Part shown: positions 1 to 16,020 of the stretch, piece by piece | Numbering within the stretch: position 1 is the stretch's first letter | Layout of the letters: each line of letters starts with the position of its first letter | Source of the DNA: a virus | Lineage: Duplodnaviria > Heunggongvirae > Uroviricota > Caudoviricetes | DNA length: 64,000 nucleotides | Virus record (IMG/VR): IMGVR_UViG_3300033067_001661 | Span: 1-64,000 of that record | Direction: 5' to 3' (one strand) | Notes under the pieces: generated by a model | The model's database searches: none | Told to the model about the DNA's origin: nothing | What the model saw: only the letters and a program-made list of their open reading frames with translations | Program-made: the position numbers and the translations under genes

Positions 1-46
1 GGATTCGAACCAGGACGAACCAGGACGAACCAGGACGAAAAGATTT
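1..46 (-). pseudogene. 3' remnant of a disrupted tRNA (probably Gln); runs off the window edge; T-arm 10-mer triplicated
   Basis: Minus strand reads AA-TCTTT-TCGT-CCTGGTTCG(TCCTGGTTCG)x2-AATCC; TCTTT can pair with GGAGA of the 5' remnant at 656-686. Confidence 0.6.
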
Positions 47-49
47 TAA

Positions 50-122
50 CTGGGCGAACAGGATTCGAACCTGTAGCATCCGGATCCAAAGTCCAGCGTT
101 CCACCATTTGAACTATCGCCCA
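50..122 (-). tRNA. tRNA-Gln(TTG)
   Basis: Cloverleaf; anticodon arm CTGGA-CT TTG GA-TCCGG; T loop TTCGAAT. Confidence 0.93.
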
Positions 123-601
123 TTCTTTCCCGCGAATGTCTCTGTTTGACTATGGCAGTTTGGACAAAGCAATCTTAGGTTTTCTCGTCTATTATCTCTA
201 CAGTTACCATTTTTATGATCAAGCTGAAGAGACAATGGTTTATCATTCCAATTCGGACCAATTTTACACGAAGAACATTCATTCACAACAATATTTTCTT
301 TTATCAATCTTTTCTTAAGAGATCTACTGTTGGTGTAATTTGAGTTTTCAACTAGAATTTCTTCTAAAGGTTGTCCTTTACAACCTCTTATTGACTTATT
401 TTTGTTTGAATTTCTTCCAAGAACTATATGAGAAAAATCAATTTCATCACTAATCAATCTTTCTTTAAGAGTTCTACTGTTTCCACCTTTAGGACTTAGA
501 CCATATTTTCGCAAAATAAATGAAAGAGAATCCGTAGACTTTACAAGCTGATCTAGTTCTTCTCTTGGTATGGCCCAAAGTATTGATTTTTTCTTTCGCA
601 T
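113..601 (-). CDS. HNH endonuclease
   Basis: CxxC...LQLDHKNGN...N...NLRLLCPNCH; AGGAG precedes ATG at 601. Confidence 0.9.
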   Translation of the reverse strand: MRKKKSILWAIPREELDQLVKSTDSLSFILRKYGLSPKGGNSRTLKERLISDEIDFSHIVLGRNSNKNKSIRGCKGQPLEEILVENSNYTNSRSLKKRLIKENIVVNECSSCKIGPNWNDKPLSLQLDHKNGNCRDNRRENLRLLCPNCHSQTETFAGKNGR

Positions 602-655
602 ATCTATCTCCTGTAAGATAGATAATACAAATAATGGTAACACAACCCTTCTTTT

Positions 656-686
656 GTCTCCTATGCTACCGTTACATCATAGACCA
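656..686 (-). pseudogene. 5' half of a disrupted tRNA (Gln-like)
   Basis: TGGTCTA-TG-ATGT AACGGT AGCAT-A-GGAGA-C, then breaks at the anticodon loop. Confidence 0.7.
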
Positions 687-752
687 ATGTTTTACTTCTT
701 CTTAGAAGAAGCCAAGGCTTCCTGTCTCTTACGACGAAGACGCTCTTGATTC

Positions 753-1022
753 TTACGATGCTTTCTTGCCACGTTTTTTTGCTTGCTTGTCATTTTTCTT
801 CTCTTTCTTTACTTTCTCTTCTTTCAATTCGAAGAGTTTGTCTCCAACAAGAACCGACCCGCCCATGACCTTTGCAATGTTCAAATGCATCTTAATTTCA
901 GACGCCTTCATTCCGCTCTTCTTGAAAAGTTCTTCAAGTTGTTCAGCCGTTACTTGAATAGGCTTACCTGCTTTGCTAGCAGTTTGTTTCAAATGGTTGA
1001 ACTTTGCGGCGGAAAAGAACAT
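753..1022 (-). CDS. hypothetical protein, Lys-rich tail
   Basis: ORF with GGAG RBS, co-oriented with neighbours. Confidence 0.65.
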   Translation of the reverse strand: MFFSAAKFNHLKQTASKAGKPIQVTAEQLEELFKKSGMKASEIKMHLNIAKVMGGSVLVGDKLFELKEEKVKKEKKNDKQAKKRGKKAS

Positions 1023-1033
1023 TGCAAATCTCC

Positions 1034-1255
1034 TTATGCGGTCTTTATTCTTACAGAAGCAACCGCAGCAGTCTTTCGGAGATTCTCAAGCGCTGACTCG
1101 CAGTTTTCACGACTTGTATAGCTTTCGCCAGACTCAGCCGTTATACGACCAGAGGAGTAATGCCTCCAACGCCACTGAGAAGTAGCGTCCTCGTACAACT
1201 CAAAGCCGTCAGGATTCGCTGCCTTCTGAACTTCATTTCCTGCTACGCAACCCAT
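1034..1255 (-). CDS. YegP/DUF1508-like small protein
   Basis: FELYED..QWRWR...GRITAESGESYTSRENC pattern. Confidence 0.75.
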   Translation of the reverse strand: MGCVAGNEVQKAANPDGFELYEDATSQWRWRHYSSGRITAESGESYTSRENCESALENLRKTAAVASVRIKTA

Positions 1256-1327
1256 TTTATGTCTCCATTCTGATTAGATTTTGCGCCAAAAGTAAACCCG
1301 TATGTTACTTTCGCTACATATTCCAAA

Positions 1328-1398
1328 CAGCCCGACCTGGATTCGAACCAGGACTAACTCTTTCAGAGAGAGTTGTGCTACCGTTACACTATCAGGCT
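1328..1398 (-). tRNA. tRNA-Gln(CTG)
   Basis: ACTCT-CT CTG AA-AGAGT; acceptor AGCCTGA/TCGGGCT. Confidence 0.9.
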
Positions 1399-1411
1399 AA
1401 ATTTCTTAATT

Positions 1412-1612
1412 CTAGTCAATATCATTATCGTAAAATCTATACTCGTTCATTAAAATATCTTCTACAGATTCCTCAATTAATGATAATAGATCTATAGTTT
1501 TCTTTTGCAAAGGAGTAGATGATTTATCTTCTTCGCATAGTTTCTTGCATTCTGCTAAAACTTTGCGCATTTTCTTTACTTGTTCTATTGCATCTTCTGT
1601 AAAATATGGCAT
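1412..1612 (-). CDS. hypothetical protein
   Basis: 66-aa ORF filling the gap between two tRNAs. Confidence 0.55.
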   Translation of the reverse strand: MPYFTEDAIEQVKKMRKVLAECKKLCEEDKSSTPLQKKTIDLLSLIEESVEDILMNEYRFYDNDID

Positions 1613-1615
1613 AAG

Positions 1616-1689
1616 TGGACCTGGGGAGAGTCGAACTCCCTACCTTTCCCGTGCGAGGGGAATGTTCAACCAAATTGAACTTCAAGCCC
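1616..1689 (-). tRNA. tRNA-Ala(CGC)
   Basis: TTCCC-CT CGC AC-GGGAA; G3:U70. Confidence 0.93.
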
Positions 1690-1980
1690 ATGTTCTATGC
1701 TTTTCCGAAATCCATTCTCTGCCATCATACTCTTCTATTTCCCATTCTACATCGGCAGGAATGCTAACTATCTTAAGTTCTGACAAAGCGCCAAAAGCCC
1801 TTTCTCCCAAGGTTTCAATACACTCAATAAGAAGAGGATCGTCTTGCTATTTGCATAGTATTCAGAAACCTTGTAGGCAATATCTTTCATTCCTCTTTCG
1901 AAGAGCCAAAGAGCAGCCTCAGGAGAAAGACCAAAACCACCATAGCAAGTATTTATGACAACCTTCTTCTCAGCGTCCAT
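1682..1980 (-). pseudogene. frameshifted conserved phage hypothetical gene
   Basis: N-half KVVINTCYGGFGLS in one frame; C-half DPLLIECIETLG...LKIVSIPADVEWEIEEYDGREWISEKHRTWA* in another; break near 1845. Confidence 0.7.
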
Positions 1981-1988
1981 TGCTTTCC

Positions 1989-2399
1989 TCAAACTTCTCT
2001 GCTCGATTTGTAGTGAGCAGTTGCGGGAGTTACAAACGGTATTGGCTTGCCGTCTGGTCCAACACTAACCATCGCAACCGTTGCCGTTGTAACTTCTACT
2101 TTTTCGTGAGTATCGCCTCGTATGGCTTCTACTTTCACTTCAATCGTTACACTTTTCGTTCCCGTCTTTATCGTTCTTGTAGAGAACGATACGATGTCGC
2201 CTATAAGGATAGGCTTCTTGAAATCCACTTTCTCAAAAGAAGCAGTAACCCAACGATGAGCGCCGTGATTCATGGCTTCAACGAGGGCTGCCTGGTCTAT
2301 GTAAGAAAGAATAATACCACCAAAAATTGTTCCATACTGGTTTGTATGACGAGGAAGCATAACAACCTGAATGGCGGTAACGAAAGGTTTTTCTTCCAT
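1989..2399 (-). CDS. acyl-CoA thioesterase (hotdog fold, YciA-like)
   Basis: PRHTNQYGTIFGG...IDQAA...VTAS...VDFKKP motif. Confidence 0.9.
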   Translation of the reverse strand: MEEKPFVTAIQVVMLPRHTNQYGTIFGGIILSYIDQAALVEAMNHGAHRWVTASFEKVDFKKPILIGDIVSFSTRTIKTGTKSVTIEVKVEAIRGDTHEKVEVTTATVAMVSVGPDGKPIPFVTPATAHYKSSREV

Positions 2400-2402
2400 A
2401 AG

Positions 2403-2438
2403 TGGAGCCTGCGAGATTCGAACTCGCCACCTATTGCT
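2403..2438 (-). pseudogene. 3' remnant of a disrupted tRNA-Ala
   Basis: T arm GCGAG TTCGAAT CTCGC plus acceptor strand AGGCTCC-A; no D or anticodon arm. Confidence 0.75.
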
Positions 2439-2487
2439 TTAGCCCCTTTTTAGTCTTAATAAACAATAAAGCACTAATTTTGATTCT

Positions 2488-2766
2488 TCATATAGATGGT
2501 AACAAATCAACATCTATCAAAAATCTATCACATACTACTTTAACGTATTCCTCATTAGTTTTATACTGAAAACTTTCCCACAAGGAAAATCTAGGACCAT
2601 TACGCGATTTATTCAGCCTTCCAATACAAACATAAATGTTTCGTATAGATCTATCTAGATCATAAATACAATGACGATCTTCTTGATTTTTCAAAACACT
2701 TAACAGCCTCTTGCATCGGCTCTGTAAGGCGTCTATTTTTTCTTTTACTTTGATATCAATGTCCAT
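2488..2766 (-). CDS. hypothetical protein
   Basis: 92-aa ORF inside the Ala cassette. Confidence 0.55.
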   Translation of the reverse strand: MDIDIKVKEKIDALQSRCKRLLSVLKNQEDRHCIYDLDRSIRNIYVCIGRLNKSRNGPRFSLWESFQYKTNEEYVKVVCDRFLIDVDLLPSI

Positions 2767-2769
2767 AAG

Positions 2770-2842
2770 TGGAGCTTATGGGGATCGAACCCACCGTCTC
2801 AACCTTGCAAAGGTCGCGATTCACCTTCGAATCTTAAGCCCC
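2770..2842 (-). tRNA. tRNA-Ala(TGC)
   Basis: CGACC-TT TGC AA-GGTTG; G3:U70. Confidence 0.93.
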
Positions 2843-2843
2843 G

Positions 2844-3326
2844 CTACCACTTACCTGCATGCTTCTCTCTATGACATCTACAACATAGAAGGTCACACTT
2901 ATCAAGTTCTGTCTTCAATCTTTCCCAACTCCAGCATTTCATTTTATGAAAATCCGGATCTTTTTCTTGCGGATTGCGATGGTGAAAATCCATCGCTTCA
3001 TAACATTCACTATAGCCGCATTTCAAACACTTGTTACCCTTATATTCTATCGCTTTTTTCTTCTGATCTTTAAAACGTTTCACCGTTTGTTTACTGTGGC
3101 ATTTTTTGCACAAATTCCTTGAATAACCGTTACGCCCATTCTTCATCATCATTTCAGGATTTGATTCAGAACAGCTTTTGCAACAGTAGGATTTTTTCTT
3201 GACAGTTGTTAGACTAAATTTCTCAAGCCAATATCTTGCATTGGTTTGAGAAACACTTAACTTCTCTGCTATCTGTCGAGTTGAAAAGCCTTCATTAACT
3301 AGTTTTAGTAAAAGCTCTGAATCCAT
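2844..3326 (-). CDS. HNH endonuclease with N-terminal HTH
   Basis: STRQIAEKL HTH; CLKCGY...MDFHHRNP...KCDLLCCRCHREKH. Confidence 0.9.
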   Translation of the reverse strand: MDSELLLKLVNEGFSTRQIAEKLSVSQTNARYWLEKFSLTTVKKKSYCCKSCSESNPEMMMKNGRNGYSRNLCKKCHSKQTVKRFKDQKKKAIEYKGNKCLKCGYSECYEAMDFHHRNPQEKDPDFHKMKCWSWERLKTELDKCDLLCCRCHREKHAGKW

Positions 3327-3374
3327 AGAGTATATTTCTATACTCTAGCTCAGCAATCCTTTTTTATTTGCAAA

Positions 3375-3391
3375 AGATGAGCTAAGACCCC
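3375..3391 (-). pseudogene. 5' remnant of a disrupted tRNA-Ala
   Basis: GGGGTCT-TA-GCTC-ATCT; GGGGTCT pairs with AGGCTCC at 2404-2410, including G3:U70. Confidence 0.6.
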
Positions 3392-3394
3392 AAA

Positions 3395-3464
3395 ACAACC
3401 AATATGTTAGGTGACCAACGGGGGTAACTTAACAGGTTAACCGTAGGTACATTCGACTGGTTGT
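3395..3464 (-). ncRNA. Y-RNA-like module, copy 1
   Basis: ACAACCAG-TCGAATG...GGTTAAC...CATA-TTGGTTGT. Confidence 0.6.
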
Positions 3465-3466
3465 AA

Positions 3467-3540
3467 TGCCCCTACCCGGATTCGAACCGGGAAAACGTCG
3501 GCTTAAAAGGCCGCTGCTTTACCTGATAAGCTTCAGGGGC
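3467..3540 (-). tRNA. tRNA-Lys(TTT)
   Basis: CGGC-CT TTT AA-GCCG. Confidence 0.9.
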
Positions 3541-3712
3541 GCTTCTTATTTTTGTCCGAAATCAATTCTTCCCTAGATTTCGGCTCATGACCTTTGGCAA
3601 ACCACATCTTAAACTCAGACTCGCATTCACAACACTTGGGAGGCTTATTACCTCCTTGGTCAAACGCAAAGGTACATCCGCAATGACATTTAGTACCTTC
3701 AAGTCGTTTCAT
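3533..3712 (-). CDS. small Cys-rich hypothetical protein
   Basis: MKRLEG..CHCGC..CCEC; the upstream part of the listed ORF is tRNA. Confidence 0.5.
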   Translation of the reverse strand: MKRLEGTKCHCGCTFAFDQGGNKPPKCCECESEFKMWFAKGHEPKSREELISDKNKKRP

Positions 3713-3714
3713 AA

Positions 3715-3790
3715 TAGCGGAGATAGGATTCGAACCTATATGGAATGGCTTATGAGACCACCGCTGGGAACCGTTCCAGTCTACTCCGCA
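3715..3790 (-). tRNA. tRNA-Met(CAT), 1:72 mismatch
   Basis: TGGT-CT CAT AA-GCCA; acceptor TGCGGAG/CTCCGCT. Confidence 0.85.
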
Positions 3791-3880
3791 GTCTATATTC
3801 AAATCGACAATTACTCAAAACTTCCTTTAGAGAACACGATTGTTTTAGTCGATACTGAAGTGAAAGAAGAAAGGTTAAGT

Positions 3881-4423
3881 ATGGACACAAAAAACATTCA
3901 TGTCGATTTTGAAAAGCTATCAGCAAGTCTTGTTGACGTTCTTCCTATTGCTATTATTATCTTCAACAGCAAGCATGATATAATCTATTGCAACAAACAC
4001 ACAGAAGCTGTATTCGGATACAAAACTGAAGAACTTATAGGAAAGCCTCTTAGTTCTCTTGTTCCTGATAGATTCAAAGAAAGTCATAGCCATGACGCTC
4101 ATGAATATATGAAAAACCCGAAACCAAGGTCTATGAATAATGGACTGGAACTATATGCTATTCACGCAGACCATCATGAATTCCCCGTAGAAATAGCTCT
4201 TTCTCCATTAGTCAAAGACGACGGAGAACAACTTGTGGTAGCTTCCATTCTTGATCTAACTAAAATGACTTCTCTTATTCTTAGAGTTGATTCTTCTGTT
4301 TTAGCTAACACTGAACTTCAGGGCAAGATTGTTGCAATGAAAGAAAAGATGGTAGAAATGGAAGAGAAGTATTCTTCGCTTCTAAAAAGCTCCCGGTTGG
4401 ATTCGAACCAACGTGTCGTTTAA
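3881..4423 (+). CDS. PAS-domain protein with C-terminal coiled coil
   Basis: N..TE.VFGY..EELIGKPLSSLVP...FPVEIALSP...DLT PAS signature. Confidence 0.85.
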   Translation: MDTKNIHVDFEKLSASLVDVLPIAIIIFNSKHDIIYCNKHTEAVFGYKTEELIGKPLSSLVPDRFKESHSHDAHEYMKNPKPRSMNNGLELYAIHADHHEFPVEIALSPLVKDDGEQLVVASILDLTKMTSLILRVDSSVLANTELQGKIVAMKEKMVEMEEKYSSLLKSSRLDSNQRVV

Positions 4424-4471
4424 CGATTCTGCTTTGCAGGCAGGCCCATTCAACCTCTCTGGCACAGGAGC
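4388..4471 (-). tRNA. tRNA-Cys(GCA) with long variable arm
   Basis: CTGC-CT GCA AA-GCAG; U73; variable hairpin TCGT-TAA-ACGA. Confidence 0.85.
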
Positions 4472-4472
4472 A

Positions 4473-4628: not shown

Positions 4629-4658
4629 AATAGAAACCGCAAGCGCTAACCTGTTGTT

Positions 4659-4871: not shown

Positions 4872-4873
4872 AA

Positions 4874-4948: not shown

Positions 4949-4950
4949 AT

Positions 4951-6635: not shown

Positions 6636-6685
6636 CGGAGAGCAAGGGATTCGAACCCTCATTGCGCCTTTTAAGACGCAAGACT
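6636..6685 (-). pseudogene. 3' half of a disrupted tRNA-Ser
   Basis: Variable arm GCGTCT-TAAA-AGGCGC, T arm, acceptor strand GCTCTCC-G. Confidence 0.8.
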
Positions 6686-6956
6686 AAATATCTCTTGAAA
6701 CTATATCTATTTTCTTTCGCAAAACTGTAACGTCTTCTAGATATTCTTCTGAATCTAAATCTAAACAGTGATTATCAAGAAAGTTAACAACCTCTTTAGC
6801 TATATCTTTTAGAGATTCTATCCTAAACAAAAGTTCACTTTTCCATTCTTCTACAGTATCTCCATCTAATTGATTGGTTGATGCCTTATGTTGAGAATGC
6901 AGCATTTGGCGAATCAACTCTTCAATAGATGCGTTTTTATGTGATCTTTCTTTCAT
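6684..6956 (-). CDS. hypothetical protein
   Basis: 90-aa ORF inside the Ser cassette. Confidence 0.55.
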   Translation of the reverse strand: MKERSHKNASIEELIRQMLHSQHKASTNQLDGDTVEEWKSELLFRIESLKDIAKEVVNFLDNHCLDLDSEEYLEDVTVLRKKIDIVSRDI

Positions 6957-6959
6957 AAG

Positions 6960-7050
6960 CGGATGGTGTCAGAGTTGAACTGACGGCACCCCTTACGAGG
7001 TGCGGCGGTTTAGCAAACCGCTGGGAAAAACCGACATTCCCGTACCATCC
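6960..7050 (-). tRNA. tRNA-Ser(GCT)
   Basis: GCGGT-TT GCT AA-ACCGC; long variable arm. Confidence 0.92.
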
Positions 7051-7052: not shown

Positions 7053-7748
7053 TTATCTTTTCAAGATATCATCGCCATTTTTTATAGCTTTGATTTCTTG
7101 CTTTTTCCAAACCAGAAGCTTATGGTCAAACTGACTCCACTTGCTTCTGTCTTTATCTGTCTCGAATCCCTTGACTTCCAAGTAACTGTCTATGTCTTCA
7201 ATATAGAAATCAGGAGTATAAAATCTTTCTTTACTGTCGTAATTATAGGCAAAACGATTCTTATTTCTCTTCCATTTCACACCAATTTTATCAAGATACT
7301 GAGCTACTTCAAGCTCCCAAGTTCCATCAACTTTTATTAATCCAGCAATCGGACTATTGTAATCTATTTTCTTACAGCGACCAGCTTTTGGCATCCAACC
7401 ATTTTTGTATCGTTTATTGATTGAATTTCTTATCTTTTCTCGTCGCTGTTCTTCTGTCTTTTTGGTCCCTGCAACGCCTAGATTTGGATGACCAATTAAT
7501 TTAGCAGAAACCCTCGCAGATAACTCAGCGGCTTTTTCTTTGCCGTAAAGCTCTTCGTTAGTCTTGCCTTTGTTCCAAGCTTGTTGCTCGCCAGTTTTCC
7601 CTTTATTCCACGGAGCTACGCCAGTTTGCTTTTTAGCAAGTTTGGCCCGTATTGCTGGACAACGAGAAACATTCTTCTCACAGCAATAATTCTTACCTAT
7701 CAGGTATCTACCCTGACAACCGCATCCATGTTTACATATTATATCCAT
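7053..7748 (-). CDS. free-standing endonuclease: NUMOD3-like repeats plus PD-(D/E)xK domain
   Basis: PWNKGKT/AWNKGKT repeats; YTPDFY...YLEVKG. Confidence 0.85.
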   Translation of the reverse strand: MDIICKHGCGCQGRYLIGKNYCCEKNVSRCPAIRAKLAKKQTGVAPWNKGKTGEQQAWNKGKTNEELYGKEKAAELSARVSAKLIGHPNLGVAGTKKTEEQRREKIRNSINKRYKNGWMPKAGRCKKIDYNSPIAGLIKVDGTWELEVAQYLDKIGVKWKRNKNRFAYNYDSKERFYTPDFYIEDIDSYLEVKGFETDKDRSKWSQFDHKLLVWKKQEIKAIKNGDDILKR

Positions 7749-7791: not shown

Positions 7792-7828
7792 GCAAACTGC
7801 TGCCGCCAACCATATCGGCCTACTCTCC
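7792..7828 (-). pseudogene. 5' half of a disrupted tRNA-Ser(GCT)
   Basis: GGAGAGT-AG-GCCG..CGGC-A-GCAGT-TT GC| breaks in the anticodon; pairs with GCTCTCC at 6637-6643. Confidence 0.8.
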
Positions 7829-10723: not shown

Positions 10724-10724
10724 A

Positions 10725-11189: not shown

Positions 11190-12070
11190 TAGATGATCTT
11201 ATTGAGGTATTCGTCAATCATTTCCTTACGAGCAAGACCTTCAATCAGGTAATCAGGTATGGAATCGAATCCATAATGAGCGCCAGCAAACTGTCCTGCA
11301 ATCGCTCCAGTTGTATCGGAATCATTGCCAAGGTTGACTGCTCGCAACACAGCTTGCTCGAAGTTATCCGTATCGTAGAAGGCCCACAAAGCCGATTTGA
11401 GGCTTTCTATGACATGGCCCCGACCGTCAACCTCATCCGTCAAGAAAGAGCCATTAGCGACCGCTCGGACTTCTGGAACGAGTTCTAGACTCGCTGTTTC
11501 TTCCCAAGTCGGATTCAAAACCTGTTCCTTTGACAAGCCTCTCAGCAAGCCAGACAGGATAACAGCCATATATTCGCAAGCAGAACGACAAGCAGGACTA
11601 CTATGAGTAGTAGCGCTTGATTCAACTGCAATAGTTCTCAGGTTCGGGTCTGTTGCAAACTTGATTGCAACAGGAGCGAGTCTCATGATTGAGCCATTAC
11701 CCATTGCTTCAACAAGCGGCGACTCAAGTTCGCCAGTTGCAATGTAGTTCTCCAAAGACTTTCTGGTAGTACCTCCCATGCCAAAGCATTTATTACCAGG
11801 AGTGTACTTGCCATTCTTGTACCAGTCAACGTACTTGTCTAACTGGTCTTTCTTGGAGTGACCATTTGCTAGAGAATCAGCAAGAGCCAAAGCCATGCTC
11901 GTATCGTCTGACCATTCCCCAGCAAGGGAACGACGAGCTTTTGCGTCTCGATATCCCAGAACAGGAGGAAACGTGCCTGCTTGCTTCATCTCGACTGGAA
12001 CGCCCAAAGCGTCTCCAATCGCAAGCCCATAGAAGCAGCCTTTTTGACGATTTTGCAAATCGGTAAGCAT
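11189..12070 (-). CDS. ADP-ribosylglycohydrolase (DraG/ARH family)
   Basis: GLAIGDALG...WSDDTSM...GNGSIMRLAP...GNDSDTTGAIAG. Confidence 0.93.
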   Translation of the reverse strand: MLTDLQNRQKGCFYGLAIGDALGVPVEMKQAGTFPPVLGYRDAKARRSLAGEWSDDTSMALALADSLANGHSKKDQLDKYVDWYKNGKYTPGNKCFGMGGTTRKSLENYIATGELESPLVEAMGNGSIMRLAPVAIKFATDPNLRTIAVESSATTHSSPACRSACEYMAVILSGLLRGLSKEQVLNPTWEETASLELVPEVRAVANGSFLTDEVDGRGHVIESLKSALWAFYDTDNFEQAVLRAVNLGNDSDTTGAIAGQFAGAHYGFDSIPDYLIEGLARKEMIDEYLNKII

Positions 12071-12116
12071 TGCAACAGTATAGGCGACAAAAACAGCAGA
12101 CGAAAAAACAAGTGAA

Positions 12117-12153
12117 AGCTGACGGTGGGATTCGAACCCACGACCTGTCCCGT
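12117..12153 (-). pseudogene. 3' half of a disrupted tRNA (Thr-like)
   Basis: AC-GGGAC-AGGTC-GTGGG TTCGAAT CCCAC-CGTCAGC-T directly after the endonuclease stop. Confidence 0.7.
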
Positions 12154-12156
12154 GCT

Positions 12157-12579
12157 TCACCATTCATATTCTTCTGCGAGATGAAGACCTTTAACCTGAC
12201 CGTTAGCGGGTTTTTCAAAACGAACTGTAATCGCTGTTTTATCAGCTATCATTGATGCTTCAAACCAGCAAAATTTGTCATAACGAGGGAAATATGCTAT
12301 TACTACATCTATTTCGTCTACTGAATAAGTCCAACGTCGTCCGCCCTTCTCAATAGGTTTTTTGTTATCAGCTTGCAACCGTATTGCTATAGAACCTTGT
12401 GCGTTAGATCTTTCGCCGTCACAATACTTGATTTGTGTCCTATATAGCTTTCCATTTTTGTCAAGAATCAAGTCGTAACGAGAAGCGTCACTGATAGGAC
12501 GACTGACTCCTATTCCTTTTTCTAGCGCTCTCAATATTACTTTTTGACAAGCTATATCACCTTTTTCGTTTGTATCCAT
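12157..12579 (-). CDS. PD-(D/E)xK homing-type endonuclease
   Basis: KGDIA...SRYDLIL...YRTQIK...YSVDEID. Confidence 0.85.
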   Translation of the reverse strand: MDTNEKGDIACQKVILRALEKGIGVSRPISDASRYDLILDKNGKLYRTQIKYCDGERSNAQGSIAIRLQADNKKPIEKGGRRWTYSVDEIDVVIAYFPRYDKFCWFEASMIADKTAITVRFEKPANGQVKGLHLAEEYEW

Positions 12580-12640
12580 TTATAGACCTCCTGCAAGGGT
12601 ATGCACAGGTCTATCGACAAGAAGAGTCTTTCTTCTTCAA

Positions 12641-12713
12641 AGTCATCACCCGAATTCGAATCGAGGTTTCCTTCGTACCAAGAAGGCGTAATAACCAACT
12701 ATACTATGATGAC
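12641..12713 (-). tRNA. tRNA-Thr(GGT)
   Basis: CCTTC-TT GGT AC-GAAGG. Confidence 0.9.
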
Positions 12714-12720
12714 ATTCTAA

Positions 12721-12808
12721 AGACTGGTCCGGGAGTCGAACCCGGCTGGAGTTTTTACACCCGCAAAGCGGTTAACAGCCGCTCGCTTAGCCGCTCAGCC
12801 AACCAGTC
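12721..12808 (-). tRNA. tRNA with GTT (Asn) anticodon on a long-variable-arm body
   Basis: AGCGG-CT GTT AA-CCGCT; ~21-nt variable region; U73. Confidence 0.75.
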
Positions 12809-12817
12809 ATACATTTT

Positions 12818-12846
12818 GGGCCGCCTGGCCTCTAGGCTACCAACCC
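12818..12846 (-). pseudogene. 5' fragment of a tRNA
   Basis: GGGTTGG-TA-GCCT AGAGGCC AGGC-G-GCCC, then ends. Confidence 0.55.
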
Positions 12847-12851
12847 GAAAG

Positions 12852-12926
12852 CTCCAGAGCTAGGATTCGAACCTAGATTATCCTAGTTAACAGCTAGGCG
12901 AATTACCAAAATTATTCGACCCTGGA
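12852..12926 (-). tRNA. tRNA-Asn(GTT)
   Basis: CCTAG-CT GTT AA-CTAGG; G73. Confidence 0.92.
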
Positions 12927-12932
12927 ATAAAG

Positions 12933-13011
12933 TGGTGAGAGTAGGATTTGAACCTACGACGCGCTGATTTACCTAGGTTACAGCCGCTCTACCAGACTGA
13001 GCTATCTCACC
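12933..13011 (-). tRNA. tRNA with enlarged anticodon loop, isotype undetermined
   Basis: Intact acceptor, D and T arms; GCTG-TAACCTAGGTAAAT-CAGC. Confidence 0.65.
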
Positions 13012-13014
13012 AAA

Positions 13015-13087
13015 AGCCTCCTCCCGGAATCGAACCGAGTATCTCTAAGGTACAAGCTTAGCGCATCGCCAGCAATGCTTAGGAGGC
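13015..13087 (-). tRNA. tRNA-Thr(TGT)
   Basis: CTAAG-CT TGT AC-CTTAG. Confidence 0.92.
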
Positions 13088-13090
13088 ATG

Positions 13091-13519
13091 TTATTTTTTC
13101 CTGAGAAGTTCCTCATGAACCTCTGCATGACAATTTCTACAAAGCATATCGCATTTATCGGCTTCGGTCTTCATTTTTTCAAATGACTGCACACAACCAC
13201 TACCTATTCCGAAGTCTTTCTCTTTTGGATCTCGATGATGAAATTGATAAACGCTTGGATACGCCTTGTTATATCCGCATCGTTGACATTTTCCACCTTT
13301 GTAATCAATAAGCTTGAGTTTACTTTTTCGTCTCCATTCAGAAACCTGTTCAGCATTCCTTAGCTTCTTAATTTTCTTTGGAGCATCAATATCGGCCTTG
13401 GTATTATGAGATTTCCAAGGCGAACACTCAAGACAATATTTGCGGTTACAAATATTCTTCCATTGTCCGTCCAAAAATACTCTGTTTTTGAAGGGTTTTT
13501 TACATTTTCTACATTCCAT
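13091..13519 (-). CDS. HNH endonuclease
   Basis: CQRCGY...QFHHRDP...KCDMLCRNCHAEVH; resembles 2844-3326. Confidence 0.9.
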   Translation of the reverse strand: MECRKCKKPFKNRVFLDGQWKNICNRKYCLECSPWKSHNTKADIDAPKKIKKLRNAEQVSEWRRKSKLKLIDYKGGKCQRCGYNKAYPSVYQFHHRDPKEKDFGIGSGCVQSFEKMKTEADKCDMLCRNCHAEVHEELLRKK

Positions 13520-13583
13520 ACTTTACCTCCTAAGAGGTATTTCGACAATGTAGCTTAGTTTTCTTCAATAAAGTGTAAGAAAG

Positions 13584-13654
13584 CTCCTCGACCAGGATTC
13601 GAACCTGGAAAAACAGATTAACAGTCTGTCGTGATACCGTTTCACCATCGAGGA
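13584..13654 (-). tRNA. tRNA-Asn(GTT)
   Basis: ACAGA-CT GTT AA-TCTGT. Confidence 0.92.
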
Positions 13655-13655
13655 A

Positions 13656-13682
13656 TCGCTCTACCAGTTGAGCTACTAGAGA
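13656..13682 (-). pseudogene. 5' fragment of a tRNA (Asn-like) abutting the intact tRNA-Asn
   Basis: TCTCTAG-TA-GCTC AACTGGTA GAGC-GA. Confidence 0.7.
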
Positions 13683-13689
13683 ATCAAAA

Positions 13690-13760
13690 CGACGCATACG
13701 AGAATCGAACTCGTGTCTTAGCCGTGACAAGGCTCTGATCTACCACTGACCTAATGCGCC
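13690..13760 (-). tRNA. tRNA-Asp(GTC)
   Basis: AGCC-TT GTC AC-GGCT. Confidence 0.9.
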
Positions 13761-13765
13761 ATAAA

Positions 13766-13839
13766 CGCCACCGAAGGGATTTGAACCCTCAACACCCTCG
13801 TAGACAGCGAGGTACTCTAGCCAATTGAGTTACGGCAGC
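13766..13839 (-). tRNA. tRNA-Asp(GTC)
   Basis: CCTCG-CT GTC TA-CGAGG. Confidence 0.9.
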
Positions 13840-13843
13840 AAAT

Positions 13844-13912
13844 GAACTGATATGTAGTTGATACAAGGGTGGAAACATTACAAGTGTTAACCTTATATCT
13901 ATCGACCAGTTC
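13844..13912 (-). ncRNA. Y-RNA-like module, copy 3
   Basis: GAACTGG-TCGATAG...AAGGTTAAC...CATA-TCAGTTC. Confidence 0.65.
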
Positions 13913-13916
13913 TAAG

Positions 13917-13990
13917 TGAGGGATGCGGGATTCGAACCCGCAAGACTTCTGGTTAAGAGCCAGATGCTTTACCTAATAAGCTTATCCCTC
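13917..13990 (-). tRNA. tRNA-Lys(CTT)
   Basis: TCTGG-CT CTT AA-CCAGA. Confidence 0.93.
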
Positions 13991-13995
13991 ATAAA

Positions 13996-14067
13996 TGACC
14001 CCTCAGGGAATCGAACCCTGTTCTCAAGATTAAGAGTCTCGTGCATCGCCACTTATGCTTAGGAGTC
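13996..14067 (-). tRNA. tRNA-Lys(CTT)
   Basis: CGAGA-CT CTT AA-TCTTG. Confidence 0.92.
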
Positions 14068-14073
14068 TCGTAA

Positions 14074-14173
14074 AATGGTTGTCTTAGCGCCTGCTCCGTA
14101 TGGATTCAGGATACTGCCGTATTGTAGCCTCTCAGCTTCACTCGTCAATACCGAACCTAAAGAATCAACCATT
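14074..14173 (-). ncRNA. unknown structured RNA
   Basis: Terminal AATGGTTG/CAACCATT; internal GTATTG/CAATAC and CCTG/CAGG stems. Confidence 0.5.
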
Positions 14174-14178
14174 CACAA

Positions 14179-14252
14179 TGACTTCGGTGGGAATTGAACC
14201 CACAACCGTGAGCTTAAAAGGCTCCTGCGCTACCTGGTTGCGCCACAAAGTC
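14179..14252 (-). tRNA. tRNA-Lys(TTT)
   Basis: GAGC-CT TTT AA-GCTC. Confidence 0.9.
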
Positions 14253-14258
14253 GAAAAA

Positions 14259-14747
14259 TCAAACCTGAGACCTTCTTCTTTGAAAAACTTCTTCCGAATA
14301 TCCTTCGGGCTTTCGTCCTTCCCACCAGTTAGGCCACCATTTATTTGCTTTTAACCAATCAACAAACTCTTTACAAGAGTTGAATTGACCTGGACCTTTT
14401 TCTTTGGTTTCGCTTTCATGATGAGCCGTAATCCATCCTGGATTTGAACAATCAAGATGGTAGATATCTAAACAAGCCCAAAGCTTTTGAGGATATCTTT
14501 TACCGTCTCTTTCGTACCAGCCGTACATTGTATTACCATCTCTAACGAAAAACTTACAATCGTTCAGAGGTTGGTCTAGGTTGGTCAATCCTGATACAAT
14601 GTTTTGCCAACGTTCTTTTTGACAGTCATTATGGAACCAAGAAGTCGTTCCTAAGAAAACCGTGTCTCCTCCAGATAGCCATTTCTTATTAGGAAACTCT
14701 TTACCGTCTTTGGGGAGAATTTCAGTATTACAGTATTCGCATTTCAT
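14259..14747 (-). CDS. hypothetical protein
   Basis: 162-aa ORF with AAGGA RBS. Confidence 0.65.
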   Translation of the reverse strand: MKCEYCNTEILPKDGKEFPNKKWLSGGDTVFLGTTSWFHNDCQKERWQNIVSGLTNLDQPLNDCKFFVRDGNTMYGWYERDGKRYPQKLWACLDIYHLDCSNPGWITAHHESETKEKGPGQFNSCKEFVDWLKANKWWPNWWEGRKPEGYSEEVFQRRRSQV

Positions 14748-14780
14748 AGTTGTTTCCTTTCAATGTCAGAAACACACAAG

Positions 14781-14855
14781 CACTCCCGGCAGGACTCGAA
14801 CCCGCTGCCTTCTCGTTCGAAGCGAGATGTGCAAATCCAGTTACACCTCGGGAGC
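14781..14855 (-). tRNA. tRNA-Arg(TCG)
   Basis: TCTCG-CT TCG AA-CGAGA. Confidence 0.92.
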
Positions 14856-14859
14856 AATA

Positions 14860-15010
14860 TGTAAGTAGGTTTCATATTATTGTTTCTATGAAACTCGCAG
14901 TCTAAATGGTCTGCTGCATTGAAGCTAGTAACAGCCACCTGTACACTTGAGCGCTCGCATGTACAAGCTCTTATATCCTATGTACGTTCTAATCCGTACT
15001 GCTACTTACA
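14860..15010 (-). ncRNA. unknown multi-hairpin structured RNA
   Basis: Terminal TGTAAGTAG/CTACTTACA enclosing five hairpins. Confidence 0.55.
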
Positions 15011-15013
15011 AAG

Positions 15014-15086
15014 CATCCCCAGTAGGAGTCGAACCTACAACCTTATCCTTAGGACGGATCTGCTCTTCCAATTGAGCTATGAGGAC
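15014..15086 (-). tRNA. tRNA-Arg(CCT)
   Basis: ATCC-GT CCT AA-GGAT. Confidence 0.9.
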
Positions 15087-15093
15087 ATGAAAG

Positions 15094-15166
15094 CTGCCCC
15101 AGTTGGATTCGAACCAACATTGACTTGCTTCAGAGGCAAGTGTCCTACCATTTAGACGACAGGGCA
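15094..15166 (-). tRNA. tRNA-Gln(CTG)
   Basis: CTTGC-CT CTG AA-GCAAG. Confidence 0.92.
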
Positions 15167-15171
15167 AAGAT

Positions 15172-15295
15172 GCAGCGACCTTGTATATAGGGCTTCTTCC
15201 AGCAGAAGAGTTGTCTCCCCATACTCGACCTTATCACGGGCAAATCTATAGGCTCGATTCTGGCTTCGAGGACAACCCCATAGACTCTCCGCTGC
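15172..15295 (-). ncRNA. unknown structured RNA, possible pseudoknot
   Basis: Terminal GCAGCGG/TCGCTGC; AGTCTATG/TATAGATT; GGGTTGTC/GACAACTC. Confidence 0.5.
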
Positions 15296-15300
15296 TTAAG

Positions 15301-15374
15301 CGCTCCTGGAGGGATTCGAACCCCCAACTTTCTGCTTAGAAGGCAGAATTTCTGTCCAGTTGAATTACAGGAGC
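15301..15374 (-). tRNA. tRNA-Arg(TCT)
   Basis: TCTGC-CT TCT AA-GCAGA. Confidence 0.92.
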
Positions 15375-15379
15375 ATAAG

Positions 15380-15407
15380 CGTTCCCAAGAGGAGTCGAAC
15401 CTCTAAC
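15380..15407 (-). pseudogene. 3' remnant of disrupted tRNA-Arg(ACG)
   Basis: AGAGG TTCGACT CCTCT-TGGGAAC-G; pairs with GTTCCCA at 16014-16020. Confidence 0.85.
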
Positions 15408-15415
15408 AAAACAAG

Positions 15416-15489
15416 CGCTCCTGGGAAGATTCGAACTTCCAACTCCGACATTCGTAGTGTCGGTTTCTGTCCAGTTGAATTACAGGAGC
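15416..15489 (-). tRNA. tRNA-Arg(ACG)
   Basis: CGACA-CT ACG AA-TGTCG. Confidence 0.92.
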
Positions 15490-15929
15490 TTATCAATATT
15501 ACCTCGATACCAGCCAAACTGTTTAGCAGTTTTTCGTTGATGACAGTTTGCACATCTTACATCGCATTTTTCTACTTCTTTGAGAATTGTTTCCCAACTA
15601 AATCCATACATAAGACTTGATACTGTTTGTCTTTTCTTGCCTCTTACATGATCGAACTGAAGAACAACAGGATCTTTTTCGCCGCAATCAACGCATGGAT
15701 GTTCAAGTAGATAGCTGTACATCTTATTCTTGTTTTCAGCTATGATTACAGCGTTTCTTTTCACTGCTTTCTTTTTGTAGTATTCTTTGTTGTTTTGATA
15801 GTGCTTTTTCTTATGAATCTTGTTGCATTCCGTACAAATGGAATGTCTCAATTTCTTTTCTTTGCTGCGAAAAGTAAAGTCATTGATAGGCCTTTGTAGA
15901 CCGCATTTCGTGCATGTTTTTGTTTCCAT
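15480..15929 (-). CDS. HNH endonuclease
   Basis: CTKC..CTEC; CVDCGEKDPVVLQFDHVRG...CDVRCANCHQRKT. Confidence 0.92.
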   Translation of the reverse strand: METKTCTKCGLQRPINDFTFRSKEKKLRHSICTECNKIHKKKHYQNNKEYYKKKAVKRNAVIIAENKNKMYSYLLEHPCVDCGEKDPVVLQFDHVRGKKRQTVSSLMYGFSWETILKEVEKCDVRCANCHQRKTAKQFGWYRGNIDKLL

Positions 15930-15978
15930 ACATACCTCCTAAGAAGTATGTACAACAATGCACTCGAAAATCCTTCTT

Positions 15979-16020
15979 TGATTCGTAGTCAGAAACTCTA
16001 TCCAATTGAGCTATGGGAAC
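15979..16020 (-). pseudogene. 5' part of disrupted tRNA-Arg(ACG)
   Basis: GTTCCCA-TA-GCTC..GAGT-T-TCTGA-CT ACG AA-TCA|. Confidence 0.85.

Follow-up and report, generated by a model that had tools for sequence, protein, structure and literature searches.

Endonuclease genes with spare same-anticodon tRNAs split tRNA genes of a giant phage: probable homing of replacement cassettes

Why does a phage carry endonuclease genes lodged inside tRNA genes, each beside an intact tRNA gene with the same anticodon? The window, i.e. the whole stretch of 64,000 nt that we analysed, is the start of a 333-kb contig from an uncultured giant phage, and its minus strand has 42 tRNA genes. In this array, at least four old tRNA genes (Gln-TTG, Ala-TGC, Ser-GCT and Arg-ACG) are split by endonuclease cassettes of ~0.57-1.0 kb, and all four loci of the original prediction were recovered where it had placed them or within a few bases. 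Between the two pieces of the old tRNA gene, the order is a short leader, an endonuclease gene, an intact same-anticodon tRNA gene and, optionally, a small ORF. The nuclease and tRNA genes are fused, with a gap of 1-3 nt or with the ORF ending within tRNA positions 8-10. Compared with intact alleles of related phages (L numbers below), the insertion point lies within the old gene's anticodon loop or next to it, with a loss of 0 to ~9 nt.

At the Gln locus, the features are:

656..686, minus strand: 5' piece of the old tRNA-Gln(TTG), positions 1-32, ending after C32 of the anticodon loop
113..643, minus strand: HNH endonuclease gene of the cassette, with an ATG at 601 and an in-frame GTG at 643
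50..122, minus strand: new tRNA-Gln(TTG) in the cassette (ARAGORN; Rfam tRNA, 66.3 bits), 61% identical to the old one
1..45, minus strand: 3' piece of the old tRNA-Gln(TTG), starting near position 37 and truncated by the contig end

In a side-by-side reading, every base of the 5' piece (686-656) is the same as in an intact tRNA-Gln(TTG) (L017:18786-18858), and the alignment of the locus to L017 ends at 656. The 3' piece (45-1) matches the 3' part of this allele and contains a 10-nt triplication, and 4 nt, U33 and the anticodon, are gone between the pieces. A leader with the motif AAAGAAGG (644-655) precedes the nuclease gene, which matches phrog_10822 HNH (E 1e-43; the Pfam HNH_3 match is weak) and has its stop codon inside the new tRNA, giving a 10-nt overlap.

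The Ala locus is compared with tRNA-Ala(TGC) of the same relative:

3377..3391, minus strand: 5' piece of the old tRNA-Ala(TGC), 15 nt intact and equal to the start of L017:15971-16045
2844..3326, minus strand: HNH endonuclease gene (phrog_2255 HNH, E 2e-29) with an HTH-like N-terminal part
2769..2842, minus strand: new tRNA-Ala(TGC) (ARAGORN; Rfam 45.7 bits), 61% identical to the old one and the contig's only intact Ala(TGC)
2488..2766, minus strand: small ORF of 92 aa
2403..2439, minus strand: 3' piece of the old tRNA-Ala(TGC), A37 to A73, with U70 kept

The 5' piece, which extends to ~3363 as a decayed remnant with an anticodon-loop-like motif, lies at the same distance from tRNA-Lys as the intact L017 allele. 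The 3' piece, the same as the L017 tRNA at every base in a side-by-side reading, starts a 589-nt alignment with 97.5% identity to L017:16008-16596, and a thioesterase start codon lies 3 nt past it with the same spacing in L017. The small ORF has no Pfam match and is missing from the cassette-free L017 allele. Across the HNH domain, the nuclease is 51% identical to that encoded at 13091-13519, which is described below.

The Ser cassette contains a different type of nuclease:

7792..7828, minus strand: 5' piece of the old tRNA-Ser(GCT), ending after C35, the second anticodon base
7053..7748, minus strand: endonuclease gene with a C-terminal endonuclease-I/PD-(D/E)xK-like domain
6959..7050, minus strand: new tRNA-Ser(GCT) (ARAGORN), 61% identical to the old one and the contig's only intact Ser(GCT)
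6684..6956, minus strand: small ORF of 90 aa
6636..6681, minus strand: 3' piece of the old tRNA-Ser(GCT), with the long variable arm, T arm and acceptor

The 5' and 3' pieces are 86% and 96% identical, respectively, to the corresponding parts of an intact tRNA-Ser(GCT) (L018:2184-2275), and ~9 nt (positions 36-44) are gone between them, among them the last anticodon base and the 3' strand of the stem. L005 has the same 5' piece and junction, and L006 and L027 have variants of this piece with compensatory D-stem changes. The nuclease had been described as NUMOD3-PD(D/E)xK; its PD-(D/E)xK-like nature stands, with PHROGs matches of the endonuclease-I/PD-(D/E)xK-like type (phrog_15137 endonuclease, E 4e-17; phrog_9019, E 8e-11) and a weak match to Pfam Phage_endo_I, while NUMOD3 does not (Pfam E 3.5). 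The small ORF has no Pfam match, and L006 has other ORFs in its place. L018 and L030 have the new type of tRNA-Ser(GCT) with no nuclease, and the L018 copy is intact next to the old type; thus, the cassette may have acquired its spare tRNA by capture of a resident gene.

At the Arg locus, the following features are present:

15979..16020, minus strand: 5' piece of the old tRNA-Arg(ACG), positions 1-41, with the break in the 3' strand of the anticodon stem
15480..15929, minus strand: HNH endonuclease gene (phrog_2255 HNH, E 5e-36)
15415..15489, minus strand: new tRNA-Arg(ACG) (ARAGORN; Rfam 50.5 bits), 69% identical to the old type and the contig's only intact Arg(ACG)
15380..15407, minus strand: 3' piece of the old tRNA-Arg(ACG), with the variable-loop end, T arm and acceptor

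The breaks are in or next to the anticodon loop, as claimed for three loci, that of Arg being in the stem and not in the loop itself. The alignment to L026 ends at 15975; L026 has an intact old-type tRNA-Arg(ACG) at 2163-2239 with the same anticodon arm as the 5' piece, and the 3' piece is 94% identical to the 3' end of intact Arg(ACG) genes in L027-L029. The proposed acceptor pairing between the halves is complete (7/7 pairs), and ARAGORN calls the joined pieces as tRNA-Arg(acg) across many join points. As in the Gln cassette, the stop codon of the nuclease gene lies inside the new tRNA with a 10-nt overlap; the acceptor and D arm of this tRNA are identical to those of the adjacent tRNA-Arg(TCT). 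The cassette is present in 7/7 contigs that share an identical neighbouring gene, i.e. polymorphism within the population was not seen among them.

A fifth, partial case, Thr(GGT), has the order new tRNA, nuclease, old 3' piece, and a related module is found at Thr(TGT):

12641..12713, minus strand: new tRNA-Thr(GGT) (ARAGORN), 52% identical to the old-type Thr(GGT)
12157..12579, minus strand: PD-(D/E)xK homing endonuclease gene of the I-Ssp6803I family (Pfam PF11645, E 2e-26; PDB 2ost, E 2e-9)
12115..12141, minus strand: 3' piece of the old tRNA-Thr(GGT), T arm and acceptor
13015..13519, minus strand: HNH gene (13091-13519; phrog_2255, E 7e-32) and, 3 nt on, tRNA-Thr(TGT), a module of the same kind

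The 27-nt Thr(GGT) 3' piece is 100% identical to the 3' end of an intact tRNA-Thr(GGT) (L030:8981-9068), and L027 shares its acceptor strand; a 5' piece of the old gene was not found at this locus. L006 lacks the nuclease, and its Thr(GGT) is directly followed by the next gene. At the Thr(TGT) module, no old tRNA pieces were identifiable; the HNH gene is shared by L017, where a small ORF and another allele of Thr(TGT) come next. The sixth case is perfect: in tRNA-Ala(GGC) of L017, a cassette with a PDDEXK_5 nuclease lies between positions 36 and 37 with zero bases lost. The array also contains orphan tRNA pieces without an adjacent nuclease (13688-13655, 6600-6553 and 6545-6521).

At the split loci, the old tRNA gene is dead and the cassette tRNA is then usually the sole gene for that anticodon, in the window for Ala-TGC, Ser-GCT, Arg-ACG and Thr-GGT. 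The replacement had been predicted to be of the same isotype, which is correct and can be sharpened because the anticodon itself is identical in 6/6 cases (Gln, Ala, Ser, Arg and Thr in the window; Ala-GGC in L017). Otherwise, old and new sequences are only 52-69% identical and their anticodon stems differ, in line with the strong divergence first noted. Other parts of the original prediction were also borne out: the joined pieces are called as tRNAs that correspond to intact genes in relatives; relatives have, at the syntenic site of each of the four loci, a cassette-free allele with an unbroken old tRNA (Gln and Ala in L017, Ser in L018, and Arg in L026 and L027-29); and phrog, Pfam and PDB matches place the nucleases in several lineages that behave alike, four across the cassettes, one of which is the I-Ssp6803I family. 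In cassette-free L017 (Gln and Ala) and L026 (Arg), the old gene is alone for its anticodon. Because relatives keep unbroken originals, the cassette replaces its target and does not hide as an intron. Judged from these sequence comparisons, chance is excluded as the source of the old/new pairing because all six pairs have matching anticodons and unbroken genes of relatives align with the pieces.

Based on these data, we suggest that mobile cassettes of a nuclease and a spare tRNA home into and replace same-anticodon tRNA genes, and we give this explanation a probability of about 0.72. In this model, each nuclease would cut the old gene and spare the new one. In a co-infecting cassette-free phage, the nuclease would cut the anticodon stem-loop DNA of the old gene, and the cassette-bearing genome would serve as the template for mending the break, the old pieces and flanks acting as homology arms. 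Repair would copy the cassette in and thereby destroy its own target site. The co-transferred tRNA, with the same loop and a different anticodon stem, would be uncuttable and keep decoding; the spare tRNA would, therefore, fill the role of self-splicing in intron-borne endonucleases. Over time, the old pieces might decay or be deleted, leaving plain nuclease-tRNA modules, and homing of this kind would turn over the tRNA alleles of the array. The junctions are identical in L005, L006 and L027, which are only 70-85% alike, and 5' pieces across relatives have pairing-preserving D-stem changes (Gln A-T to G-C, Ser C-G to A-T); such a pattern would be expected from repeated entry of cassettes into functional alleles. 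In the comparison of the window with L006, cassettes are 71-80% and flanks 84-92% alike; this greater divergence of the cassettes does not look like a recent single-cassette sweep and counts against the model. The lack of polymorphism at the Arg locus, the nuclease-free new-type Ser(GCT) and the intact upstream tRNA in phage JimJam (see below) likewise count against it.

It is also conceivable, albeit unlikely, that the loci are one-off recombination debris: nucleases of the array would break tRNA genes, and imprecise repair involving arrays that are diverged and mosaic would leave pieces behind. The nuclease-tRNA unit would then be no discrete element that spreads via the pieces as homology arms, and the shared anticodon would reflect ordinary intronless homing, in which a nuclease sits beside a resistant target allele and co-conversion is incomplete. 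The orphan pieces, the strongly mosaic tRNA arrays of relatives and the higher divergence of cassettes than flanks fit this explanation, as does the hybrid Ala(TGC) at the Ala site of L006, a sign of simple recombination between tRNA genes that counts against cassette homing. However, debris would have to account for one ordered design that recurs six times with four nuclease lineages, for cassettes flanked by both pieces with merely 0-9 nt lost, and for the junctions shared by diverged relatives.

It is improbable that the cassette is moved by other means, e.g. general recombination of the phage at an end sequence that the cassettes have in common, with the nuclease as a passenger or serving, for instance, to cut tRNA genes of the host or of competitors. 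In favour of such a mover, cassettes with unrelated nucleases have a purine-rich motif (AAAGAAGG or near variants) at their left junction: two of its four occurrences in the 64 kb are at junctions, and motifs of this type are also at left cassette ends in L006 and L027. However, the motif resembles a ribosome-binding or leader element and at the Arg junction may partly be old tRNA sequence. Moreover, Pfam and PHROGs gave no recombinase or transposase in or adjoining the cassettes, and the nuclease ORFs are intact and from known homing families.

A true intron or split tRNA, in which removal of the cassette from the RNA or trans-joining of the two halves would keep the old tRNA functional, is very unlikely. 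The positions in or next to the anticodon loop are as for group I introns of bacterial tRNAs, the L017 Ala(GGC) insertion is precise, and D stems of the 5' pieces remain paired across relatives. However, Gln and Ser lose anticodon bases, Rfam searches, including short focused ones, detected no group I or group II intron, and the halves are thus wreckage and not exons. In addition, only ~50-75 nt of cassette are left for a ribozyme once the ORF and inner tRNA are subtracted, L006 and L027 keep 5' pieces without 3' pieces, and no complementary leader sequences adjoining the old pieces were seen by eye. The intact alleles, the missing bases and the Rfam results together support the original proposal of insertion into a tRNA gene with a same-anticodon replacement instead of an intron. 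Finally, a chimeric joining of similar tRNA sequences in metagenome assembly has a negligible likelihood: the contig start does fall inside the Gln 3' piece, with the 10-nt triplication at its very end, but the 661-nt Arg locus is 100% identical in four independent assemblies and is, therefore, no artefact, the Ser and Gln cassettes have the same junctions in L005, L006 and L027, and contigs from public runs span the junctions colinearly.

We found no published description of a same-anticodon replacement cassette in the literature, and the proposed homing shares individual design principles with several known systems. SegB of phage T4 and other free-standing homing endonucleases of T-even phages perform intronless homing; SegB is a GIY-YIG enzyme encoded between intact tRNA genes and recognises a conserved T-loop motif, so that many tRNA genes are targets (PMC2330249, PMC13096335). 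In both cases, a nuclease in a phage tRNA cluster cuts, or would cut, tRNA genes of relatives without it and is co-inherited with adjacent tRNA genes via break repair. By contrast, each cassette described here interrupts one particular tRNA gene in its anticodon arm, brings a complete same-anticodon tRNA fused to the end of the nuclease ORF, and encodes an enzyme of the HNH or PD-(D/E)xK type. The gene for I-Ssp6803I lies in a group I intron of tRNA-fMet in Synechocystis, and the target of the enzyme is the anticodon region of tRNA-fMet genes. It is a homing endonuclease with a pseudo-palindromic target (PDB 2OST; PMC3384342). Its family, PF11645, is common to the Thr(GGT) and L017 Ala(GGC) cassettes, and insertion is in the anticodon loop of a tRNA gene in both systems; however, the cassettes lack a ribozyme, and function would be rescued by a spare gene and not by splicing.

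Protein-coding genes provide further parallels. In nrdA of phage Aeh1, insertion of the endonuclease gene mobE makes a gene in pieces. Fractured genes with split inteins have also been described (PMC2677866). In these examples, as here, an intron-free homing endonuclease gene splits a host gene; there, protein products reassemble or splice, whereas here the split gene is abandoned and replaced. In fungal mitochondria, an endonuclease ORF in Allomyces atp6 has a co-transferred foreign 3' end. In Armillaria atp9, a free-standing endonuclease ORF lies beside a partial copy of the invaded gene (PMC6506933). As in the cassettes, the endonuclease carries a substitute for the displaced gene part, and the displaced piece persists as a fragment. 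However, the fungal cases are protein-coding with only partial in-frame replacement, while the cassettes bring a whole unrelated RNA gene with the same decoding function and both old pieces persist.

In Cluster M mycobacteriophages, HNH genes adjoining tRNA genes have been implicated in the diversity of the tRNA repertoire (Pope et al. 2014, as cited in PMC5966550 and PMC6409571); the two citing papers do not describe insertion in a same-anticodon tRNA with both pieces kept. Layouts similar to the cassettes occur in cultured actinophages. For instance, Streptomyces phage JimJam has Pro(tgg)-HNH-Pro(tgg), Leu(tag)-HNH-Leu(tag) and Phe-HNH-Phe 3' piece; because the upstream same-anticodon tRNA is intact there, landing within the gene is not obligatory. 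Homologues of the Arg HNH in Streptomyces and Rhodococcus phages have the same 10-nt overlap with the downstream tRNA. A further parallel is offered by integrative elements with tRNA genes as targets, which rely on an integrase and restore the invaded gene with the copy of the tRNA 3' end that they bring along. As in the proposed cassette homing, a mobile element enters a tRNA gene and repairs the damage with its own sequence. However, in place of an integrase and a short duplicated 3' segment, the cassettes have no integrase and carry a complete tRNA that is just 52-69% identical to the one it replaces.

The original prediction described four loci at which an endonuclease gene and an intact tRNA gene split an older tRNA gene of the same isotype, and this layout was borne out when the minus strand was read and T arms were scanned for outside the called tRNAs. 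At each locus, the order is the 5' piece of the resident (old) tRNA gene, a leader of ~50 nt, an endonuclease ORF, a complete (new) tRNA gene and the 3' piece of the old gene, and the acceptor strands of the 3' and 5' pieces pair. The Ala and Ser cassettes carry an extra ORF of 90-92 aa between the complete tRNA and the 3' piece.

Cassette loci and related cases in the window
686-1, minus strand: Gln(TTG) cassette locus
3391-2403, minus strand: Ala(TGC) cassette locus
7828-6636, minus strand: Ser(GCT) cassette locus
16020-15380, minus strand: Arg(ACG) cassette locus
12641-12713, minus strand: new tRNA-Thr(GGT) of a partial case
12157-12579: nuclease gene of the partial case
12115-12141: old 3' piece of the partial case
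13091-13519: HNH gene next to tRNA-Thr(TGT)

The observation at the four loci is real and stronger than first described. New and old genes share the anticodon in six of six cases and are only 52-69% identical overall, with a different anticodon stem, in line with the strong divergence claimed for them. In the window, the new gene is the sole gene for Ala-TGC, Ser-GCT, Arg-ACG and Thr-GGT; in relatives without the cassette, the old gene alone serves that anticodon. As foreseen, joining old halves can yield a tRNA: for the Arg pieces, ARAGORN calls tRNA-Arg(acg) at widely varied join points. In the Ala and Ser cassettes, 1-3 nt separate the end of the nuclease ORF from the inner tRNA. In the Gln and Arg cassettes, its stop codon (TAG or TAA) forms tRNA positions 8-10, and the resulting 10-nt overlap makes nuclease and tRNA genetically inseparable.

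Overlaps of 10 nt between nuclease ORF and tRNA
113-122, minus strand: Gln cassette of the window
15480-15489, minus strand: Arg cassette of the window
1929-1938 of L031: actinophage sequence
1917-1926 of L032: actinophage sequence

The source contig, from an uncultured virus, is linear, 333,623 bp long and estimated to be 66% complete, with the window as its first 64 kb. The tRNA array, in which the contig starts, comprises the 42 genes that ARAGORN calls between 50 and 29439; every one is on the minus strand, and the rest of the contig has no tRNA gene. Public runs holding most of the stretch around the Arg locus (15300-16400) are wastewater and river metagenomes, and 661 nt of this locus are identical across four independent assemblies. 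Among seven contigs with an identical 229-aa neighbour, the Arg cassette is spanned in five and its start alone is present in a sixth; thus, the cassette is found in every contig covering it and no polymorphism is seen among them. This neighbour (16374-17063) is only a core fragment of a class II aminoacyl-tRNA synthetase, named glycyl-tRNA synthetase in the sources; it adjoins tRNA arrays and has more than 1,000 homologues, which are equally short and often lie on huge-phage contigs.

The relatives compared are two IMG/VR records (L005, 92-97% identical to the window, and L006, about 85%), two metagenome contigs (L017 and L018) and contigs retrieved via a neighbouring gene (L026-L030). Other searches returned little: a megablast of cultured-phage genomes with 16.5 kb gave only a tRNA match of 80 nt; exact matching of a pattern taken from the 5' piece of old Arg gave nothing but unrelated tRNA-Arg(TCT) genes of phages, similar at their 5' end, and a longer pattern had no match; IMG/VR relatives sought via the 229-aa protein were only 50-58% identical and not syntenic; and an IMG/VR search with the PDDEXK_5 (PF11645) profile returned almost no relatives.

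Cassette-free alleles with an intact old tRNA, which were expected to exist in relatives, were found for all four loci. L017 has an uninterrupted tRNA-Gln(TTG), the first 31 nt of which equal the 5' piece in the window at every base and the 3' part of which matches window positions 45-1, and the alignment to the window ends exactly at 656. The same contig also has tRNA-Ala(TGC) uninterrupted; its distance from tRNA-Lys equals that in the window, the thioesterase gene comes directly after it, and nuclease, second Ala tRNA and 92-aa ORF are missing from the site. L018 has an uninterrupted tRNA-Ser(GCT), which matches the Ser pieces at 86% and 96%, and no Ser nuclease. In L026, the tRNA order Arg, Gln, Arg is that of the window, an uninterrupted old-type tRNA-Arg(ACG) has the anticodon arm seen in the window, and the alignment ends at 15975; this old-type gene is also present in L027-L029. 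Thus, presence and absence at the same locus are seen among close relatives, with the Gln and Ala cassettes lacking in L017 and the Arg cassette in L026. L006 has neither the Ala cassette nor the PDDEXK_5 gene.

Compared with the intact alleles, the Gln insertion lies after position 32 with loss of U33 and the anticodon (4 nt), the Ser insertion after position 35 with loss of about 9 nt, and the Arg insertion in the 3' strand of the anticodon stem with loss of about 4 nt. The predicted break in or next to the anticodon loop holds for Gln and Ser, and for Arg has to be moved to the stem. At Ala, the 3' piece starts from position 37 and the 5' piece has decayed to 15 intact nt. Together with a GGGGCT stretch just upstream, this 3' piece could fold into a minihelix of acceptor and T arm that has G3:U70.

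All cassette nucleases belong to known homing-endonuclease families. The Ala, Arg and 13091-13519 genes encode HNH proteins of one PHROG family (Ala and 13091 share 51% identity over the HNH domain; Arg has ~30% identity to both), and the Gln gene belongs to a separate HNH family; the HNH matches to PHROG have E values of 1e-43 to 2e-29. The C-terminal domain of the Ser nuclease is endonuclease-I/PD-(D/E)xK-like (PHROG endonuclease family, E 4e-17); the NUMOD3 domain first assigned to it was not significant. The Thr(GGT) gene is of the I-Ssp6803I family (Pfam PF11645, E 2e-26, with a match to PDB 2ost).

Further cases extend the pattern. At the Thr(GGT) locus, an orphan T arm (12141-12125) lies 15 nt downstream of the PF11645 gene; the order is new tRNA, nuclease, old 3' piece, with no 5' piece, and over 27 nt the 3' piece agrees at 100% with the 3' ends of old-type tRNA-Thr(GGT) genes that are intact in L030 and L027. 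The nuclease is missing from L006. Beyond the point where the window's contig ends, a PF11645 nuclease and a new tRNA-Ala(GGC) interrupt a tRNA-Ala(GGC) of L017, without loss of a base, between positions 36 and 37. The HNH gene at 13091-13519 has tRNA-Thr(TGT) 3 nt downstream, and old pieces are not recognisable. The count of a strict script for split tRNAs is a lower bound, since Ser, with A at position 8, and Ala, with its decayed D arm, escaped it. The Arg HNH protein has homologues in 170 records of cultured phages, and the 10-nt overlap of HNH ORF and downstream tRNA recurs in Streptomyces phage JimJam and Rhodococcus phage Francesca. JimJam offers a cultured, tractable system for the cassette idea, and a possible Phe 5' piece was noted at 27210. 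In a 532-kb phage, one PF11645 gene has a tRNA-Pro 10 nt downstream and another lies between an intact and an apparently degenerate Tyr(gta) gene.

Cassette-like arrangements in Streptomyces phage JimJam (ON970590)
13617-14232: Pro(tgg), HNH, Pro(tgg)
26546-27010: Leu(tag), HNH, Leu(tag)
27210-27911: Phe(gaa), HNH and a Phe-type 3' piece

Three other readings were considered. A group I intron in a tRNA anticodon loop resembles the Gln, Ser and L017 Ala(GGC) insertions, which are in the loop, and differs from Arg, which is in the stem. We reject an intron with a self-splicing core: no Rfam group I or II intron (including RF00028) matched in 30 kb at E up to 10 or in short focused searches, and minimal cassettes have only about 50-75 nt outside the ORF and tRNA. 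The cassette ORFs are free-standing, with no intron or intein around them. As exons, the pieces would not restore a complete tRNA, 4 nt being missing in Gln and about 9 in Ser, with anticodon bases among the losses at both; only at L017 Ala(GGC) do they join completely. Contigs of two RNA-library and two DNA runs, mapped on 1-16500, are colinear across the junctions; rare or small RNAs are invisible in such contigs, and the colinearity of the RNA runs is therefore uninformative on splicing. The sole joints in these contigs are short tRNA-like cross-matches from other organisms (sides of about 20 nt), none of which joins halves. Integrative elements that target tRNA genes encode an integrase and are bounded by direct repeats of the tRNA 3' end; the cassettes have neither, their ORFs lack a recombinase domain and the inner tRNA is complete and only 52-69% identical, so this reading is rejected as well. 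In Nanoarchaeum-type split tRNAs, complementary sequences beside the halves bring them together and both halves are always present; inspection by eye revealed no such complementarity next to the pieces, 5' pieces stand without any 3' piece in L006 and L027 and Thr(GGT) lacks the 5' piece, and trans-joining is dismissed.

Rather, the idea that a nuclease inserts into its own tRNA target and brings a replacement isoacceptor instead of an intron is supported as far as sequence comparison reaches. Allele comparison shows the insertion, the death of the old gene and its functional replacement by the carried tRNA, and we class the cassettes as a candidate new form of intronless homing. In the proposed mechanism, the nuclease would cut the DNA of the old gene's anticodon arm in a co-infecting phage, the broken locus would be restored from the cassette-bearing genome, and the new tRNA gene would escape cutting; the differing anticodon stems of old and new genes lend this indirect support. 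The target of I-Ssp6803I is a 23-bp pseudo-palindrome (PMC3384342), and the DNA of an anticodon stem, a natural pseudo-palindrome, suits such enzymes. Cassette junctions are identical in L005, L006 and L027, and the 5' pieces differ by substitutions that keep the D stem paired, a pattern that fits repeated entry into functional alleles and, as regards co-conversion of flanking markers, short conversion tracts. The higher divergence of cassettes than of flanks between the window and L006, however, points the other way on conversion and speaks against a recent sweep. A new-type Ser tRNA is present without a nuclease in L018 and L030, and the spare tRNA may thus be a captured resident. The only tRNA-Ala(TGC) of L006 at the Ala site (8538-8611) looks like a recombinant of both types, its 5' two-thirds resembling the new Ala of the window and its 3' end the old one; it has a G7-A66 mismatch, and the thioesterase gene is missing there too. 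The incoming tRNA might add an advantage, such as escape from host anticodon nucleases.

The array has other features of note. In several tRNA-like genes, the acceptor, D and T arms are normal, but the anticodon hairpin is odd and a structured insert of 40-75 nt is present; the motif AAGGTTAAC is common to several of them, and their presence varies among relatives. The purine-rich motif AAAGAAGG, in many cases with A or G as the next base, marks the left junction in cassettes whose nucleases are unrelated. Two of its four occurrences on this strand in 64 kb are at junctions, and it may be a shared leader or ribosome-binding element; the copy at the Arg junction may partly be old tRNA sequence.

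Other features of the tRNA array
20301-20177, minus strand: tRNA-like gene with insert
19529-19390, minus strand: tRNA-like gene with insert
21498-21385, minus strand: tRNA-like gene with insert
8338-8189, minus strand: tRNA-like gene with insert
135-268, 11016-11092 and 11099-11199 of L006: tRNA-like genes with insert
15979-15972, minus strand: AAAGAAGG motif
654-647, minus strand: AAAGAAGG motif
about 10395 and 3985 of L006: AAAGAAGG motif
about 3775 of L027: AAAGAAGG motif
6600-6553, minus strand: orphan piece or pseudo-tRNA, no adjoining nuclease
6545-6521, minus strand: same
13688-13655, minus strand: same
21286-21215, minus strand: same
2446-2403, minus strand: same

For 6600-6553, 6545-6521, 13688-13655 and the Ala-like pseudo-tRNA at 21286-21215, no intact counterpart was found in relatives; one of the listed pseudo-tRNAs is Ala(TGC)-like with a broken D arm. 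CCA is encoded in none of the 42 tRNA genes, with a single base and then TT after each. An ATG 3-4 nt past a tRNA (CTTATG) opens many small ORFs, also past dead 3' pieces, and these pieces may thus serve as retained processing signals. A conserved tRNA with a CTA anticodon (12932-13011, "Pyl" according to ARAGORN), also present in L005, L006 and L017, could be an amber suppressor, raising the question of TAG readthrough late in infection. A 935-bp stretch (9404-10337) is absent from L005, L006 and L017, has a depth about ten times below its surroundings in all four runs and is probably another mobile insertion; its 265-aa ORF (9420-10217) has no Pfam or PHROG match. Three copies of a 10-nt unit from the old Gln T arm stand at the contig start (1-40), against one in L017, either as an assembly artefact at a contig end or as real slippage.

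Homing endonucleases are thought to persist in essential or useful genes only via self-splicing introns or inteins, and otherwise to reside between genes. The loci described here would show a third way, in which the target is wrecked and a spare is supplied. We put at roughly one half the probability that they represent a widespread, undescribed class of selfish elements, i.e. intronless invaders of tRNA genes that pay with a same-anticodon tRNA, have separate origins in several nuclease families, behave as a gene drive on the tRNA genes of huge phages and actinophages and are a main source of both tRNA allele turnover and the pieces in arrays. If the third way holds, it would account for mosaic phage tRNA arrays, for their same-anticodon duplicates and broken pieces and for the frequent welding of nuclease and tRNA genes, and would be a "cleave and rescue" gene drive found in nature. 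A direct test is possible, with intact target alleles for every locus and similar layouts in cultured Streptomyces and Rhodococcus phages.

A full-text literature search, with Pope et al. 2014 itself outside it, found no description of a nuclease and a same-anticodon tRNA inside a split tRNA gene. Two surveys (PMC5966550, PMC6409571) credit HNH genes with tRNA diversity in Cluster M mycobacteriophages, citing Pope et al. 2014. The closest studied case is SegB of T4, which is free-standing and lies in a tRNA cluster, as do the nucleases of the cassettes. SegB is a GIY-YIG enzyme that recognises a T-loop motif and is inherited together with neighbouring tRNA genes (PMC2330249), and it also amplifies tRNA genes (PMC13096335).
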